Below are positions 46,211 through 55,789 of a stretch of DNA of 64,000 bases, piece after piece (the first letter of the stretch is position 1; each line of letters starts with the position of its first letter). The position numbers were made by a program, and so were the translations under genes. The stretch lies in assembly GCA_964016885.1 (NCBI GenBank), contig OZ024741.1, positions 392,770,001 to 392,834,000 on the forward strand. Reading direction: 5' to 3'. This DNA comes from Eledone cirrhosa. Its lineage: Eukaryota. The notes beneath the pieces are model-generated. The model searched no databases, was not told the DNA's origin, and saw only the letters and a list, made by a program, of their open reading frames with translations.

Positions 46211-46575
46211 TATAAAGAAAAAGGGATGAAATCGAAAATGCAACTGAAGTCTTATTTTTTTTTAAATATATATATTTATTTGGTTCCTTTACCGGTTTCG
46301 CAGTTCTTCTGCTTTTCAAAAGGTGAGTTGAGATGGAGGGTCTGTAGTTTTTCTCACAATGGCAGATGTGAGAAAAACCACAGACCCTCCATCTCAACTC
46401 ACCTTTTGAAAAGCAGAAGAACTGCGAAACCGGTAAAGGAACCAAATAAATATATATATTTAAAAAAAAATAAGACTTCAGTTGCATTTTCGATTTCATC
46501 CCTTTTTCTTTATACTTCCACTCGTGTAGGACACCTCGGTTATTTTTCATTTTGTAAAAAAAACCTCACTTTCTA
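46211..46575 (+). mobile_element. Non-coding hammerhead element with 5' fold-back (palindrome 46211-46514); second copy 55240-55545
   Basis: Near-perfect arms, (TA)n flanks, U3-A8 hammerhead at 46402-46439. Confidence 0.85.
46402..46439 (+). ncRNA. Minimal hammerhead with U3-A8 core (also 46286-46323 minus, 55371-55406 plus)
   Basis: CCTT-TTGAAAA-GCAG-AAGAA-CTGC-GAAA-CCGG-TA-AAGG. Confidence 0.75.
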
Positions 46576-46583
46576 ATATATAT

Positions 46584-46960
46584 ATATACGATATTAAACA
46601 AATGGAAACTATATTTATAAAACCATATTTATTTCATTATACATATTTCAGGGATACCATATTAAAAATATGGCATGCCTTCGTCAGATAAAATACAATA
46701 TATAAACAGTTTTATAAATAATTTTGACGTACCATATTTATGGTACGTCAAAATTATTTATAAAACTGTTTATATATTGTATTTTATCTGACGAAGGCAT
46801 GCCATATTTTTAATATGGTATCCCTGAAATATGTATAATGAAATAAATATGGTTTTATAAATATAGTTTCCATTTGTTTAATATCGTATATCTACTCCAA
46901 AAACTTGTCGAGTGCTTTATATCGGTTATAAAATATTTACTTGTTGTAACCCAACAATTT
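46584..46960 (+). repeat. Perfect fold-back palindrome (46584-46891) of the Penelope terminal repeat with hammerheads at 46781-46844 (plus) and 46631-46694 (minus)
   Basis: ATTTTAT-CTGACGA-AGG...CCT-GAAA-TATGTA-TA-ATGAAAT. Confidence 0.9.
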
Positions 46961-47066
46961 TAAATAAAACTTTTGCATATATATATATATATATATATAT
47001 ATATATATATACATATATATATATATACATATATATATATATATATATATATATATATATATATAT

Positions 47067-48215
47067 ATAAAAACAAATAACGAAACGAAATTAAATTTCG
47101 TTTCGTTTGTAACTCACTTTTGTATGACTGACGCTTAAACAATTAAGTTAAAAATGTACATCCACATATGTATACTGAAATACTAGTATGCATATGAATA
47201 CACACACGTATACATATGTAGATGTACCGAGTTTTTCACTGGTCACTTTACTGTGAGTGTCCAGCTATTCTGTATGTAAACACACAGACAAACCGGTTTT
47301 TAGAGTCATACTGGTTTTTGAGGAAACACCTTTCCTCTATTCTCCAGAAAGCCAGACAAGGAATATTGAGCTAGTTTCGTTGTTGTTACAACTCATCAGC
47401 AATATTTACCCATCTTCCGGCCTCTCTAGAGAATCGTAAAAGCACATATCGTTATATGCTTTTTCTATGAAAATTAGTAGTGGGCAGACTAATTTGCATA
47501 GAGCGTGAGTACGTACCGGTTCAACGGAGACGATAAAAACAAATAACGAAACGAAATTAAATTTCGTTTCGTTTGTAACTCACTTTTGTATGACTGACGC
47601 TTAAACAATTAAGTTAAAAATGTACATCCACATATGTATACTGAAATACTAGTATGCATATGAATACACACACGTATACATATGTAGATGTACCGAGTTT
47701 TTCACTGGTCACTTTACTGTGAGTGTCCAGCTATTCTGTATGTAAACACACAGACAAACCGGTTTTTAGAGTCATACTGGTTTTTGAGGAAACACCTTTC
47801 CTCTATTCTCCAGAAAGCCAGACAAGGAATATTGAACTAGTTTCGTTGTTGTTACAACTCATCAGCAATATTTACCCATCTGTGCCAATATTTACCCAAT
47901 ATTTACGATATGTGCTTTTACGATTCTCTAGAGAGGCCGGAAGATGGGTAAATATTGCTGATGAGTTGTAACAACAACGAAACTAGTTCAATATTCCTTG
48001 TCTGGCTTTCTGGAGAATAGAGGAAAGGGTTTCCTCAAAAACCAGTATGACTCTAAAAACCGGTTTGTCTGTGTGTTTACATACAGAATAGCTGGACACT
48101 CACGGTAAAGTGACCAGTGAAAAACTCGGTACATCTACATATGTATACGTGTGTGTATTCATATGCATACTAGTATTTCAGTATACATATGTGGATGTAC
48201 ATTTTTAACTTAATT
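47067..48215 (-). mobile_element. Retrozyme-like non-coding element: 1.75 tandem units of 466 bp plus an inverted partial copy, three hammerheads
   Basis: Repeat starts at 47067 and 47533. Hammerheads at 47362-47406 (minus), 47828-47872 (minus) and 47951-47995 (plus): AATATTG-CTGATGA-GTTG...CAAC-GAAA-CTAG-TT-CAATATT. Confidence 0.85.
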
Positions 48216-48342
48216 ATATATATATATATATATATATATATGTGCGTGTATGTGTGAGTGTGTGTATATATGATAAAATATTATAGTTGGTTTGAAGCAT
48301 TATATATATATATATATATAATGCTTCAAACCAACTATAATA

Positions 48343-49043
48343 TTTATGCCACGAAACTACGTAGTCGAGGAATCTAGGAGAAGTTTGGGTATGATACATT
48401 TTATTACTAATTATATCTAAATGTTTCTTCTCTCTTCATAATGTATTTTTAACTCTGATACTGGTTCAGTCTAATTCAACCGGATTGGTCTGTCCCAGTC
48501 ATTCATTGAGCAACATCGGTAAGGTTGGCACCATTAACTCACGGTTGGATGTGGATGCATTCATGTATATGTGTGTGTCCGCATGTATCTGTGTGTTTCT
48601 AAATATATTGTTCATAACTCCCTCTGGTCGAGTAATCTTTGAAGTGTGGTGACTGCTGGAAAGCTGCCATTACTCATACTTCTCGCCTCCTTCACCACCT
48701 CTTCTACGGCTTCGATATAAATACCCCCTCCGCCTCCGTGGTATTTTCTTCGGGGTTATAAGAGGCTTAGCTCTGTTTCTCGACCGTTATATCGCGTGAC
48801 TATCTCCCCCTCCGCCTTTTGGGATTCTTTCTCACGTCATGTAGACGCGTTCTTGAAGCTAGTAAAATGAGGTATCCTCTTGATAAGTCGGCAGACCTCG
48901 CAAAGGCTCTATATCTTTATGATGTATTGTTTTTGTTTATGCCACGAAACTACGTAGTCGAGGAATCTAGGAGCAGTTTGGGTATGATACATTTTATTAC
49001 TAATTATATCTAAATGTTTCTTCTCTCTTCATAATGTATTTTT
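48343..49043 (+). mobile_element. Retrozyme-like non-coding element: 593-bp unit with ~107-bp direct terminal redundancy
   Basis: 48343-48450 is repeated at 48936-49043; complete hammerhead at 48875-48964. Confidence 0.8.
48875..48964 (+). ncRNA. Type I hammerhead with U3-A8 core and long stem II
   Basis: TCCTC-TTGATAA-GTCGGCA...TGCCAC-GAAA-CTACGTAG-TC-GAGGA. Confidence 0.75.
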
Positions 49044-53275: not shown

Positions 53276-53801
53276 ATATATATATATATATATATATATA
53301 TATATATATATATATGATAAAAATAAAGATAAAATATATAAATAAACGAAAAAAAAAAATATGGATACAATAAGAGAAAGATACAAAAAATGATGGAGGC
53401 AAATTGTGTTTGCACCATTTGCCTCCATCATGGATCAACTAAGCACCCTTGCTATATTAACACATTTTGATTTGCTTATCTTCAAGAACTATGCCTGTAA
53501 ATAACATTATTTTTCTTTCACCTTGCCTTATTATGCTCCACATTACGCCCCTTTTTTTCTCTTTTCTTTTCACTTCATAAACCTTGTTTGTAAATAACAT
53601 TATTCTTTCTGCACCATTTTTTTAACATGTCCAACACCACCATTCTACACCAATACATATTATTATCATTTGATAATGCATAAAAATGCTGAAACCGGTA
53701 ATAGACAATTATTAAATAAATAAATAAATGCCATTGTTAATTAATAAATAAATCAACTAATACCTTAATACTTCACACAAAGTAAAATATAGAAGAGCTT
53801 C

Positions 53802-53843
53802 AAAAATATGGAACGCTTCACGAATTTGCGTGTTATCCTTGCG
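53802..53843 (-). pseudogene. U6: U6 snRNA 3'-terminal fragment (retrocopy)
   Basis: Minus strand CGCAAGGATAACACGCAAATTCGTGAAGCGTTCCATATTTTT matches the conserved U6 3' end with one mismatch. Confidence 0.92.
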
Positions 53844-53846
53844 TGT

Positions 53847-54056
53847 CATCCTCTTCTATATTAAAACTTTTATACTCTGCTTTGTCTTGAGTACCTTACA
53901 TACTGTGGTTACCTCCGATTCAATCCGGAATAACTTATATATATATATATATATATATATATATATAAGTTATTCCGGATTGAATCGGAGGTAACCACAG
54001 TATGTAAGGTACTCAATACAAAGCAGAGTATAAAAGTTTTAATATAGAAGAGGATG
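53847..54056. repeat. Near-perfect palindrome (~90-bp arms) centred on (TA)n
   Basis: CATCCTCTTCTATATT...GGAATAACT-(TA)n-AGTTATTCC...AATATAGAAGAGGATG. Confidence 0.9.
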
Positions 54057-54635
54057 TGAATTGACCGCCAGAAACCGGGGTTACCTCCCTTTGGAGTAAC
54101 ATGTGCTTCACACCTGGTTTTGTGTTAGAACGAAAGCCTGTTGAGAAAGTAAATTCCTCTGTTCGATCTTCCAGAAACCTAACTTGTATACACCATAAGC
54201 GGATTTTGTTGATTTCGGATTTACAGAAACCTCACTTGGATATTCAGTAATTTCCAAGTGACGGTCCAGGTATATTATATATACAGATATGTGCATATGT
54301 GTATGTATGTATATTTTTATATGTATATATATGTGTGTGTGTGTATTTCCTTTTCTCACTAGTCAGTTCTTTCATTGATACAGATCACGCAGCTGAATTA
54401 GCGGTCGCTATTTTCAATTTGCAAAGCCCTTTAAACTGTATGTTATTACTCTGAGGTTTATTCCTTGTCGAGTGCTTGGCTCCACTGCTGAAGGCATTCG
54501 TTGGCTTGGCTGCTGATCGAACTTTGAATATACTGTACTATTGTATATATTTCTCTCTCTCTCTCTCTATATATATATATATATATATATATATATATAT
54601 ATATATATATATATATATATATATATATATATATA

Positions 54636-55225
54636 TATAAGTATGTATACGTACATACATATATGTATACAGACGTACAGTAGTATGTATATATATATAC
54701 ATACATGCACATATATATATATGTACGTATGGATTCACCGAACATTTATTATAATGGTCGGTGTGTTTGTAAACAAACATCCCGAATTAAGCCGTACAGT
54801 GTTTAGCAACCATCGTTGCTCATTTGTTCAACACTGACAAAGGAATGCAGTACTAGTTTCAAGCTTATTAGCTATCGTCAACAACGTATACCTTCCTGCC
54901 AGATGGTTGAACGTCTGAAAGTATATACTTTCCTTATGCATATTAACGGCTGAGCAGCCTAATTTGCATATCGAGTGAGTTAATCGGCCGAGGTACCGAA
55001 AACGATAAACGGAAAAAATGAAACGAAATTTCATTTCTCACTCTTAGTACGACTGTTACTTAAATATATATATGTACATATATATATGTGTGCATGTATG
55101 TATATATATATACATACTACTGTACGTCTGTATACATATATGTATGTACGTATACATACTTATATTTAAGTAACAGCCGTACTAAGAGTGAGAAATGAAA
55201 TTTCGTTTCGTTTTTTCCGTTTATA
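54636..55225. repeat. Nested inverted repeats of a family related to 47067 and 2429-2475
   Basis: 54636-54730 versus 55070-55165, and 55006-55068 versus 55163-55223; degenerate hammerhead at 54847-54885 (minus). Confidence 0.7.
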
Positions 55226-55789
55226 TATATATATATATATATAAAGAAAAAGAGATGAAATCGAAAATGCAACTGGAGTCTTATTTTTTTTTTAAATATA
55301 TATATTTATTTGGTTCCTTTACCGGTTTCGCAGATGTGAGAAAAACCACAGACCCTCCATCTCAACTCTACTTTTGAAAAGCAGAAGAACTGCGAAACCG
55401 GTAAAGGAACTAAATAAATATATATATTTTTTAAAAAAATAAGACTCCAGTTGCATTTTCGATTTCATCTCTTTTTCTTTATACTTTCACTCGTGTAGGA
55501 CACCTCGGTTATTTTTCAATTTGTAAAAAAAACCTCACTTTCTAATATATATATATATATATATATATATATATATATATATATATATATATATATGTAT
55601 ATACACACACTCATACGCATATATAAACACATACATACACACACATATACATGCACACACACACATATATATATTGTTATACTTTGGGAGGTTCATGTTG
55701 CCAATAACAACACACACACACCTGTTGGTTTTCACTTAAATTTATTATAAGTTTCCGGTTGGTTGGTTGGTTCGATAACTGGAAGGGTG

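Follow-up and report, generated by a model that had tools for sequence, protein, structure and literature searches.

Two insertions of one family, F1, share their ends and are both folded back head to head within a 64-kb stretch of Eledone cirrhosa DNA (64,000 nucleotides, here called the window), which raises the question of how such palindromes are made. The way in which Penelope-like elements (PLEs) acquire inverted and tandem ends is given as an unanswered question in the available excerpts of PMC8557442, and the excerpts of PMC11167929 leave open the steps that follow priming. The initial annotation overlooked that the structure is the one known from PLE pseudo-LTRs and includes a hammerhead; F1 is a useful test case for this architecture. 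The genome is dense in young, short palindromic insertions that can be typed to families (11 in 64 kb); rival explanations can therefore be tested by counting asymmetry, the longer arm and arm chimeras.

Structure of the two F1 copies

F1 was represented in the window only by copy a (46211–46575) and copy b (55240–55544), both in the order (TA)n, inverted arm, sense arm, 61-nt tail, (TA)n. The copies were about 95% alike, and the sense arms were 95.4% identical across 217 columns. Arm alignments confirmed the coordinates and features first described for them, namely common ends (sense start 46362/55330, arm start 46211/55240, 3' end 46567–46576/55536–55545) and inverted arms of different length. 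The arms overlapped over 148 nt in copy a and 94 nt in copy b. The features are as follows.

46147–46214, unstranded: TA array at the left of copy a
46185–46214, unstranded: left (TA)n target run of copy a, 30 nt; the last 4 nt overlap the arm start
46211–46358, minus: tail-less inverted arm of copy a; starts at an internal TATA site; 147/148 nt match to the sense arm
46286–46323, minus: second minimal hammerhead, antisense, in the inverted arm of copy a; descriptor match at 46319 minus
46359–46366, unstranded: centre of copy a, 8 nt; the sense sequence common with copy b begins at 46362
46362–46514, plus: sense arm of copy a (pseudo-LTR-like body)
46402–46439, plus: minimal type I hammerhead of copy a; core 46406–46412 with U3:A8, 4-bp stem II, palindromic stem III, 4-bp stem I
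46515–46575, plus: 61-nt tail of copy a, on one arm only
46576–46588, unstranded: right (TA)n run of copy a, 13 nt, common to the next insertion
55222–55243, unstranded: left (TA)n run of copy b, 22 nt
55240–55333, minus: tail-less inverted arm of copy b, 94 nt; ends in hammerhead stem II
55330–55333, unstranded: junction of copy b, GCAG, a 4-nt microhomology assignable to either arm
55330–55483, plus: sense arm of copy b with hammerhead, core at 55374
55484–55544, plus: 61-nt tail of copy b
55545–55596, unstranded: right (TA)n run of copy b, 52 nt

When folded, copy a formed one hairpin (z = -36; 0/100 shuffles equally good); a conserved fold spanning the entire sense RNA had no support (z 0.19; 120/200 shuffles as good). 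No poly(A) was present at either copy, and the direct partial tandem (pseudo-LTR pair) found in loci G and J of the window was absent from both. Target-site duplications were unreadable because the target is (TA)n. The 4-mer complementary to the junction of copy b was found once in the sense body.

Hammerhead ribozymes

The candidate minimal hammerhead in the sense arm, with a predicted cut after 46435 in copy a, is a mark of PLE pseudo-LTRs; a U3:A8 core and opposite-strand pairs 100–700 nt apart have been described for PLEs (PMC4209133). In copy b, stem I was down to 3 bp. The descriptor gave 10 matches in the window, all within fold-backs, and 0 in each of 20 shuffles. A relaxed scan of 13 further regions found copy b alone, and no hammerhead was detected by the relaxed descriptor in loci A, D, H, I and J. 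Stem II of the F2 hammerheads showed both-side changes in 5/12 pairs, based on three sequences only.

A hammerhead was not among the Rfam matches listed (150 of 175). The Rfam miRNA matches were matches to a hairpin shape, and all those listed fell below the gathering score. The hammerhead cut site was ruled out as the common 5' end, as it sits 73 nt inside the arm.

Coding content and family placement

Copies a and b contained no RT/endonuclease ORF and were therefore not filed as autonomous EN+ PLE members. A tblastn search with three Hydra-type proteins gave no match to either copy, and Pfam gave none for the tested 144-aa open frame over copy a; this frame and another of 139 aa were rejected as coding and regarded as by-products of the palindrome and the TA run. 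The ORF, protein and genome searches done yielded no ORF or autonomous partner for F1, no F1 match appeared among the matches listed for the supplement of PMC8557442, and prokaryotic genomes held 0 copies, as expected.

ORF-bearing neighbours with a CxCX5C linker and CxxC/CxH motifs lay at 4.6–5.5, 20–21 and 58.8–59.5 kb. The PLE ORFs were assigned by homologue search and motifs (RWK in 8/18 homologues, CxCX5C in 15/18); Pfam recognised none of the ORF pieces, nor two full-length homologues. F1 could not be assigned to a clade, since its copies hold no protein sequence, and partners from Neptune or Poseidon are possible. The architecture common to F1 and the ORF-bearing neighbours A and C suggests that F1 would be mobilised by a PLE RT/endonuclease. 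Copies a and b are probably independent insertions of a short, ORF-less PLE pseudo-LTR fragment, inserted by a PLE RT/GIY-YIG protein; the fragment may be either a 5'-truncated end or a non-autonomous derivative. F1 is thus a new family of known PLE architecture, and the architecture itself is not new.

Comparison loci in the window

Nine more loci in the window had the same palindrome shape, and two of them (A and C) surrounded Hydra-type RT/endonuclease fragments. The 11 scored loci come from one window and represent seven families; 8/20 inverted-repeat rows were set aside as other kinds, and a degenerate palindrome at 3267–3425 (75%) was left out of scoring.

4317–5756, plus: locus A; Hydra-type RT/endonuclease fragment, preceded by an inverted arm that bears a 111-nt tail and followed by a tail-less arm
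5800–6379, plus: locus B (F2); palindrome with hammerheads; a dispersed repeat interrupts the tail at about 6149–6290
18707–22747, plus: locus C (F2); 1110-nt inverted arm and tail, Hydra-type ORF fragment 19895–21214, tail-less arm
35026–35218, unstranded: locus D; 55-nt arms, 77-nt tail at left
46581–46976, plus: locus E (F2); adjoins copy a; palindrome with hammerheads, tail at right
47070–48215, unstranded: locus G; partial tandem (466-nt unit) inverted against the tail-less arm; hammerheads; locally repeated bases at centre
50712–51005, unstranded: locus H; older palindrome (84%), 40-nt tail; at the end of the tail side, a short TA is followed by (TG)n
52533–52765, unstranded: locus I; 90-nt arms, 56-nt tail at right
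54640–55224, unstranded: locus J (related to G); adjoins copy b; long tail-less arm, short tailed arm

Exactly one arm was tailed in 11/11 scored loci (P ≤ 0.0005 under independent choice of start site), and no symmetric insertion was found among them. Microhomology lengths were read by eye from the alignments; a TA match of 2–5 nt was present at the internal start in 10/11 loci (null 0.115), and by family in 6/7 (P = 1.4e-5). Priming at TA-rich sites, as first proposed, is supported to this extent; the sites were family-fixed positions and not any TA-rich spot, and the position was kept at locus G with a TA match of only 1 nt.

In F2, the arms were identical within each of three loci (141/141) and 75–89% identical between loci; the start site was common, and the centres differed. 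At loci A, C and J, the tail-less arm was the longer and the tailed arm held sequence absent from the other arm. Neither arm is therefore a plain copy of the other, and simple fold-back of one cDNA is insufficient; priming by both target strands is required by these three loci unless a cutting step is added, and F1 alone does not separate the two. In both F1 copies the tailed arm was the longer. The centres of A and G showed locally repeated bases, as in end joining, and those of B, E and I were near-perfect. A fixed centre was unsupported as a general rule, since the centres of B and E differed by roughly 25 nt and C ran on.

Four single-arm copies (2418–2474, 18622–18690, 22792–22893 and 55671–55753) showed that a second arm is not always present. 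Three palindromes were centred on microsatellites (23219–23388, 48276–48345 and 53847–54056).

Flanks and arm variants of copies a and b

The initial annotation had set its reading against a segmental duplication, and no flank match was found within about 500 nt on each side of the copies. Comparison of 3 kb on each side gave 12 matches, all short dispersed repeats, none collinear beside the element and 0 in the left flank of copy a; a segmental duplication was rejected on these unrelated flanks. The arms had also been expected to be closer to their own partner than to other copies. This held by shared characters, with three sites grouping by locus (two substitutions and one run-length difference) and 0 by arm type; it failed by raw identity in copy b, whose inverted arm matched copy a at 91/94 sites and its own partner at 90/94. 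The arms of copy b thus differed at 4/94 sites, as much as the two copies differ from each other. The sense start shared by the copies is weak evidence, because deleting 62 nt between two GCAG from copy a would likewise give copy b; in copy b this start is ambiguous by 4 nt, the GCAG at 55330–55333 belonging to both arms.

Mechanism and alternatives

In the best model, to which we give a probability of about 0.6, cDNA synthesis starts from both target strands, using the two PLE start sites, and the resulting ends are then linked head to head. The enzyme would cut both strands of a (TA)n run, as seen in vitro for another PLE. The RNA would offer two fixed start sites, one at the end of the tail and the other internal, 61 nt further upstream, and each free 3' end would then pair at one of them over 1–5 nt of UA; the sites are placed by the arm ends, and the pairing is presumed. 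Both cDNAs would be extended over the same RNA segment, through an uncut hammerhead, which the arms span. The two cDNA 3' ends would be joined head to head, probably by end joining, at the 4-nt microhomology in copy b and the 8-nt centre in copy a, and each cDNA would then be filled in. With two fixed start sites and head-to-head joining, a fresh palindrome, tailed on a single arm, would arise at each insertion.

A palindrome formed at insertion by two-strand priming, as initially proposed, thus remains the best reading. Its support comes from the nine other loci and from in vitro work with a PLE protein in the excerpts of PMC11167929; copies a and b alone do not separate this reading from fold-back of one cDNA or from a deletion in an inherited palindrome. 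The two-cDNA model was not found stated in the literature searched. Counted against it, the start sites and strand equality reported in the excerpts of PMC11167929 would predict some symmetric insertions, and none was seen. The lack of an F1 ORF or autonomous partner in the searches done, the four single-arm copies, the arm differences of copy b and the near-perfect centres of B, E and I, to which self-priming is equally suited, also count against the model. A single template molecule, as also proposed, is one reading of the arms; the arms would look no different if a dimer carried two RNAs of one source locus, and either arrangement fits, the downstream copy displacing the upstream one if the RNA is single. 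It is put forward tentatively that these PLEs use a single RNA molecule to prime two cDNAs that overlap, one per cut end at two fixed sites. The tail-primed copy would displace the internally primed one, and the second cDNA would replace ordinary second-strand priming, so that every complete event would be a lopsided palindrome; initiation in the 5'-most RNA repeat would run off the transcript start and so give the common sense start of copies a and b.

An unlikely alternative is that self-priming follows the fold-back of a single cDNA (or of an antisense template), after which the endonuclease cuts one arm at an internal TA and removes one tail. The Discussion of PMC3846280 proposed self-priming to explain the inverted junctions of PLEs, and excerpts of PMC8557442 put forward endonuclease resolution to account for the tail. 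Fold-back accounts for the variants that the arms share, for the strictness of the asymmetry and for the near-perfect centres at B, E and I; the junction of copy b is a ready fold-back site with a 56-nt loop, and the F1 copies alone fit equally well, with the longer arm tailed in both. However, fold-back yields loci A, C and J only if the cutting step is added, the loops would have to span 1.0 kb at A and 1.8 kb at C, and the tail maps in vitro to two RT start sites rather than to a cut (excerpts of PMC11167929). It is less likely again that copies a and b derive from one ready-made palindrome copied as a unit, of which copy b lost the 62 nt. Copy b does align end to end with copy a around this single gap, flanked by 4-nt repeats, its arms differ at 4/94 sites, and the common sense start needs no added assumption. 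The three sites that group by locus speak against it, as do the arms of copy a, which differ at 1/148 sites when 6.8 differences are expected if inherited without conversion (P = 0.0085); gene conversion evening these arms must therefore be added. The differing F2 centres, and 1.8 kb of ORF between the arms of one F2 copy, are likewise unfavourable, and the palindrome's origin is merely shifted one step back.

Post-insertion conversion of a single-arm insertion into a palindrome, by host break repair at (TA)n cruciforms, appears highly improbable. The microsatellite-centred palindromes show that such events may occur here, and single-arm copies are present, but the (TA)n junction is not where the tail-less arm begins; its start is a site within the element that is fixed for each family, and the arm holds no flanking sequence. 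Least credible is a segmental duplication, or fold-back chimeras that arose as artefacts of the library or the assembly. The window has abundant (TA)n, with 458 runs, and one 200-nt gap, and structures of this sort trouble assemblies (excerpts of PMC8557442); against this stand the point changes between arms, the family-specific ends recurring across loci and the unrelated flanks. If the two-cDNA model is true, the both-strand extension seen in vitro would be tied to the genomic inverted copy, and PLEs would steadily supply (TA)n-rich animal genomes with long hairpins.

Comparison with known systems

EN+ PLEs carry an inverted 5'-truncated copy head to head, a tail at one end, a (TA)n target and a minimal hammerhead in the repeat (PMC3846280; excerpts of PMC8557442). 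F1 shares all of these and differs in having no ORF and no direct tandem, the latter published as frequent in PLEs and not universal. Its 61-nt tail (40–111 nt over the window) exceeds the 30–40 nt usually published for PLEs. The Hydra clade is marked by the protein motifs RWK, DKT, CxCX5C and CxxC/CxH. The window neighbours resemble this clade in the excerpts of PMC8557442 in the CxCX5C linker, CxxC/CxH, (TA)n targets and hammerheads; insertion of F1 into (TA)n (runs of 30/13 and 22/52 nt) is not diagnostic of Hydra, because it is common to Naiad and Neptune. According to the excerpts of PMC11167929, the anole PLE protein Poseidon_Ac cuts and extends both strands in vitro, two RT starts delimit the tail, the template is an uncut hammerhead RNA and the protein is predicted to be a dimer; no difference was reported between strands, and the start sites were non-homologous to the cut DNA, in contrast to the TA match of 1–5 nt in the Eledone loci. 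The available main text does not link both-strand extension to the inverted copy.

As in metazoan non-LTR retrozymes (excerpts of PMC7229834), F1 is small, non-coding and low in GC, with a type I hammerhead. Retrozymes form head-to-tail arrays with canonical hammerheads, whereas F1 forms single head-to-head pairs with a minimal one; the lack of a tandem and the minimal core excluded retrozyme identity. A MITE or foldback DNA transposon was also rejected, as the 61-nt tail lies outside the inverted repeat and inverted repeats are not at both termini.

In L1 twin priming, a single RNA is copied from both target ends, and the two cDNAs are joined head to head. In an L1 example in the excerpts of bioRxiv 10.1101/2024.12.14.628481, the two cDNAs are adjacent and non-overlapping, one with poly(A). 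The initial description of F1 as twin-priming-like would hold for priming by both target strands, the best reading, and not for the products: the two cDNAs of F1 would overlap almost fully, giving a palindrome, with fixed sites and no poly(A).

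Structure and Flanks of the Two Insertions

The two palindromic insertions of family F1 reported in (TA)n by the initial annotation, copy a (46211-46575) and copy b (55240-55544), were both present with the structure described there. Copy a was ordered as (TA)n, inverted arm, centre (the junction between the arms), sense arm, tail (the stretch carried by one arm outside the inverted repeat), and (TA)n.

Features of copies a and b
46211-46358, inverted arm of copy a, 148 nt
8 nt at the arm junction, centre of copy a
46362-46514, sense arm of copy a
46402-46439, minimal type I hammerhead in the sense arm of copy a
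46515-46575, tail of copy a, 61 nt
55240-55333, inverted arm of copy b, 94 nt
55330 onwards, sense arm of copy b, then the same tail as in copy a, then (TA)n

The junction of copy b was a 4-nt GCAG assignable to either arm. The sense arms of the two copies shared 95.4% identity over 217 columns, and no third copy was found within the window. No common flanks were found at 0.5 kb, and comparison of 3-kb flanks gave 12 matches, every one a short dispersed repeat; the flanks were unrelated at both distances.

Across the block that the four arms have in common, three sites grouped by locus (two substitutions and a difference in run length) and none by arm type. The proposal that arms are nearer to their own partners was borne out by these sites (3 vs. 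0) but not by raw identity in copy b, whose inverted arm was as close to copy a (91/94) as to its partner (90/94) because the copy b sense arm had four private changes.

Hammerhead Motifs and Assignment

In the copy a hammerhead, U3 and A8 replaced C3 and G8, stem II had 4 bp, stem III was palindromic and stem I had 4 bp; copy b also had the motif, with a stem I of 3 bp. A descriptor scan of the window gave 10 matches, all inside fold-back elements, and 0 matches in each of 20 block shuffles. Penelope-like elements (PLEs) have minimal hammerheads, the U3:A8 variant and opposite-strand pairs 100-700 nt apart (PMC4209133), and their typical arrangement is an inverted 5'-truncated copy adjoining the element, with a tail at one end only (PMC3846280 and PMC8557442). 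No reverse transcriptase (RT) or endonuclease sequence was found in copies a and b, which are best called PLE-type pseudo-LTR fragments and were not filed under an autonomous family.

Neighboring Head-to-Head Loci

Among 20 local inverted-repeat rows in the window, 12 represented 11 head-to-head loci with TA-run borders. The eight rows left out comprised a Tc1 element, a non-TA-ended repeat, a degenerate palindrome, three palindromes centred on microsatellites, and two pairs whose members were separate dispersed copies.

Neighboring loci
4317-5756, locus A
5800-6379, locus B
18707-22747, locus C
35026-35218, locus D
46581-46976, locus E
47070-48215, locus G
50712-51005, locus H
52533-52765, locus I
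54640-55224, locus J

Exactly one arm was tailed in 11/11 loci (tail 40-111 nt), a pattern with P of at most 0.0005 under independent choice of start site. The expectation that arms start at internal TA sites was upheld among the neighbors: the start of the tail-less arm matched (TA)n for 2-5 nt, as read by eye, in 10/11 loci vs. 0.115 at random positions (by family 6/7, P 1.4e-5). This internal site was fixed per family, with a homologous position used by loci B, C, and E (family F2; 75-89% alike), and the tail-less arm of locus G started at the position of its relative J though its TA match was 1 nt only. Within each of B, C, and E the arms were identical over 141 nt, while the centres differed between loci. 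Centres showed microhomology in copy b, near-perfect symmetry in B, E, and I, and locally repeated bases in A and G. The uniformity was weakened by four single-arm copies, each ending at one or other site.

Loci A and C enclosed RT and C-terminal endonuclease fragments with Hydra-clade CxCX5C and CxxC/CxH motifs; among homologues RWK occurred in 8/18 and CxCX5C in 15/18. The 3' region of locus C was unusually long, 1.5 kb past the ORF (19782-19894 and 21256-22747), with AT-rich tandem bits differing between its arms. In locus G, 47067-47881 consisted of a 466-nt non-coding unit repeated as a partial tandem; it had a hammerhead (Rfam HH9 30-37 bits, below gathering) and lay in inverted orientation to the tail-less arm. 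Its relative, locus J, was about 70% alike, and the sequence looks like a non-autonomous PLE derivative. A short dispersed repeat, SINE-like by size, lay at 6149-6290, 27105-27166, and 51894-52019 (81-89% alike), its first copy breaking the locus B tail.

Three palindromic insertions were stacked in succession in the same TA runs at 46147-48241, as were locus J, copy b and one further single arm at 54568-55750. TA runs are repeated landing sites for palindromic insertions.

Other Features of the Window

The microsatellite-centred palindromes (53847-54056, 99%; 48276-48345, 100%; 23219-23388, 87% alike) were tail to tail, a geometry differing from that of the PLE fold-backs; the first adjoined a U6 snRNA piece at 53802-53892 (Rfam 28.5 bits, below gathering). 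At 22913-24273, 316-nt inverted repeats (97%) with non-TA borders surrounded a (TATG)n-centred palindrome and may have interrupted a family-D insertion. A Tc1-type DNA transposon occupied a TA site at 6405-7997 (210-nt inverted repeats, 97.6%; transposase frame 6862-7659). Direct repeats of 460 nt (60346-60805 and 62848-63307, 98.7% alike) flanked about 2 kb within a Hydra-type PLE ORF (58848-60345 and 63309-63461, minus strand); a target duplication of 4 nt and a site resembling a primer-binding site were read by eye, pointing to an LTR-type element at 60346-63307. A lone tail-less arm with kinship to locus I ran on, within 55671-57355, into sequence that by eye resembled an endonuclease end (minus strand) followed by a piece of RT (plus strand). 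Pfam gave no match there, and the whole may be a longer PLE, also head to head, from a different clade. A degenerate (AT)n array of 5.7 kb (12785-18499) adjoined a 200-nt assembly gap (12585-12784). Taken together, the PLEs, the Tc1-type transposase and the U6 piece suggest animal DNA.

Proposed Mechanism of Insertion

Purified anole PLE protein cut and extended both strands of an AT-rich target and reverse transcribed from two internal sites, which delimit the tail; the template was RNA uncut by its hammerhead, and a dimer was predicted (PMC11167929). By the mechanism proposed here, both strands of (TA)n would be cut and each end would prime one cDNA, the first starting from the tail end and the second from the internal site; the two overlapping cDNAs would be joined head to head by end joining, then filled in. 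Two fixed ends, the asymmetry, locus-grouped variants and ribozyme read-through were read directly in the sequence. That both cDNAs are primed on one RNA at two fixed sites, every complete event giving a lopsided palindrome, is put forward tentatively (probability about 0.3). Because the in vitro study found no strand difference in the start site (PMC11167929), so strict an asymmetry hints that a single RNA is kept in fixed geometry; two RNAs in unequal registers on a dimer are an admissible alternative. Run-off at the start of a transcript might account for the sense start common to copies a and b; family F2 had no equally fixed centre.

The main rival, self-priming of one cDNA with resolution by a cut removing one tail, can be assembled from proposals in PMC3846280 and PMC8557442 and is considered rather unlikely. 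Each arm of loci A and C contained sequence absent from the other, so fold-back of one cDNA fails for these loci unless a later cut takes off one tail. Arm length is a discriminator between the mechanisms: the tail-less arm was longer in A, C, and J, and the tailed arm in copies a, b, and G. Inheritance of one palindrome by both copies, followed by a deletion in copy b and by conversion in copy a, is more doubtful; deleting 62 nt between two GCAG from copy a does yield copy b, but without conversion about 6.8 differing sites would be expected between the copy a arms, against 1 observed (P 0.0085).

Comparison with Known Systems

Assignment of copies a and b to a retrozyme array (cf. PMC7229834) or a MITE was rejected. 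Their palindromic architecture is already known, and the family appears undescribed within the literature checked. No paper in the open literature searched was found to explain the PLE inverted copy by two cDNAs, and subscription papers on PLE structure may do so; the mechanism amounts to a modest synthesis, and its counts come from a single window. Copies a and b work in the same way as PLE insertion. The twin-priming-like insertion suggested initially was partly supported by the neighboring loci as regards priming by both target ends, and the likeness to L1 ends there: in the L1 example the cDNAs lie side by side without overlap (bioRxiv 10.1101/2024.12.14.628481), whereas at the PLE-type loci they would overlap.
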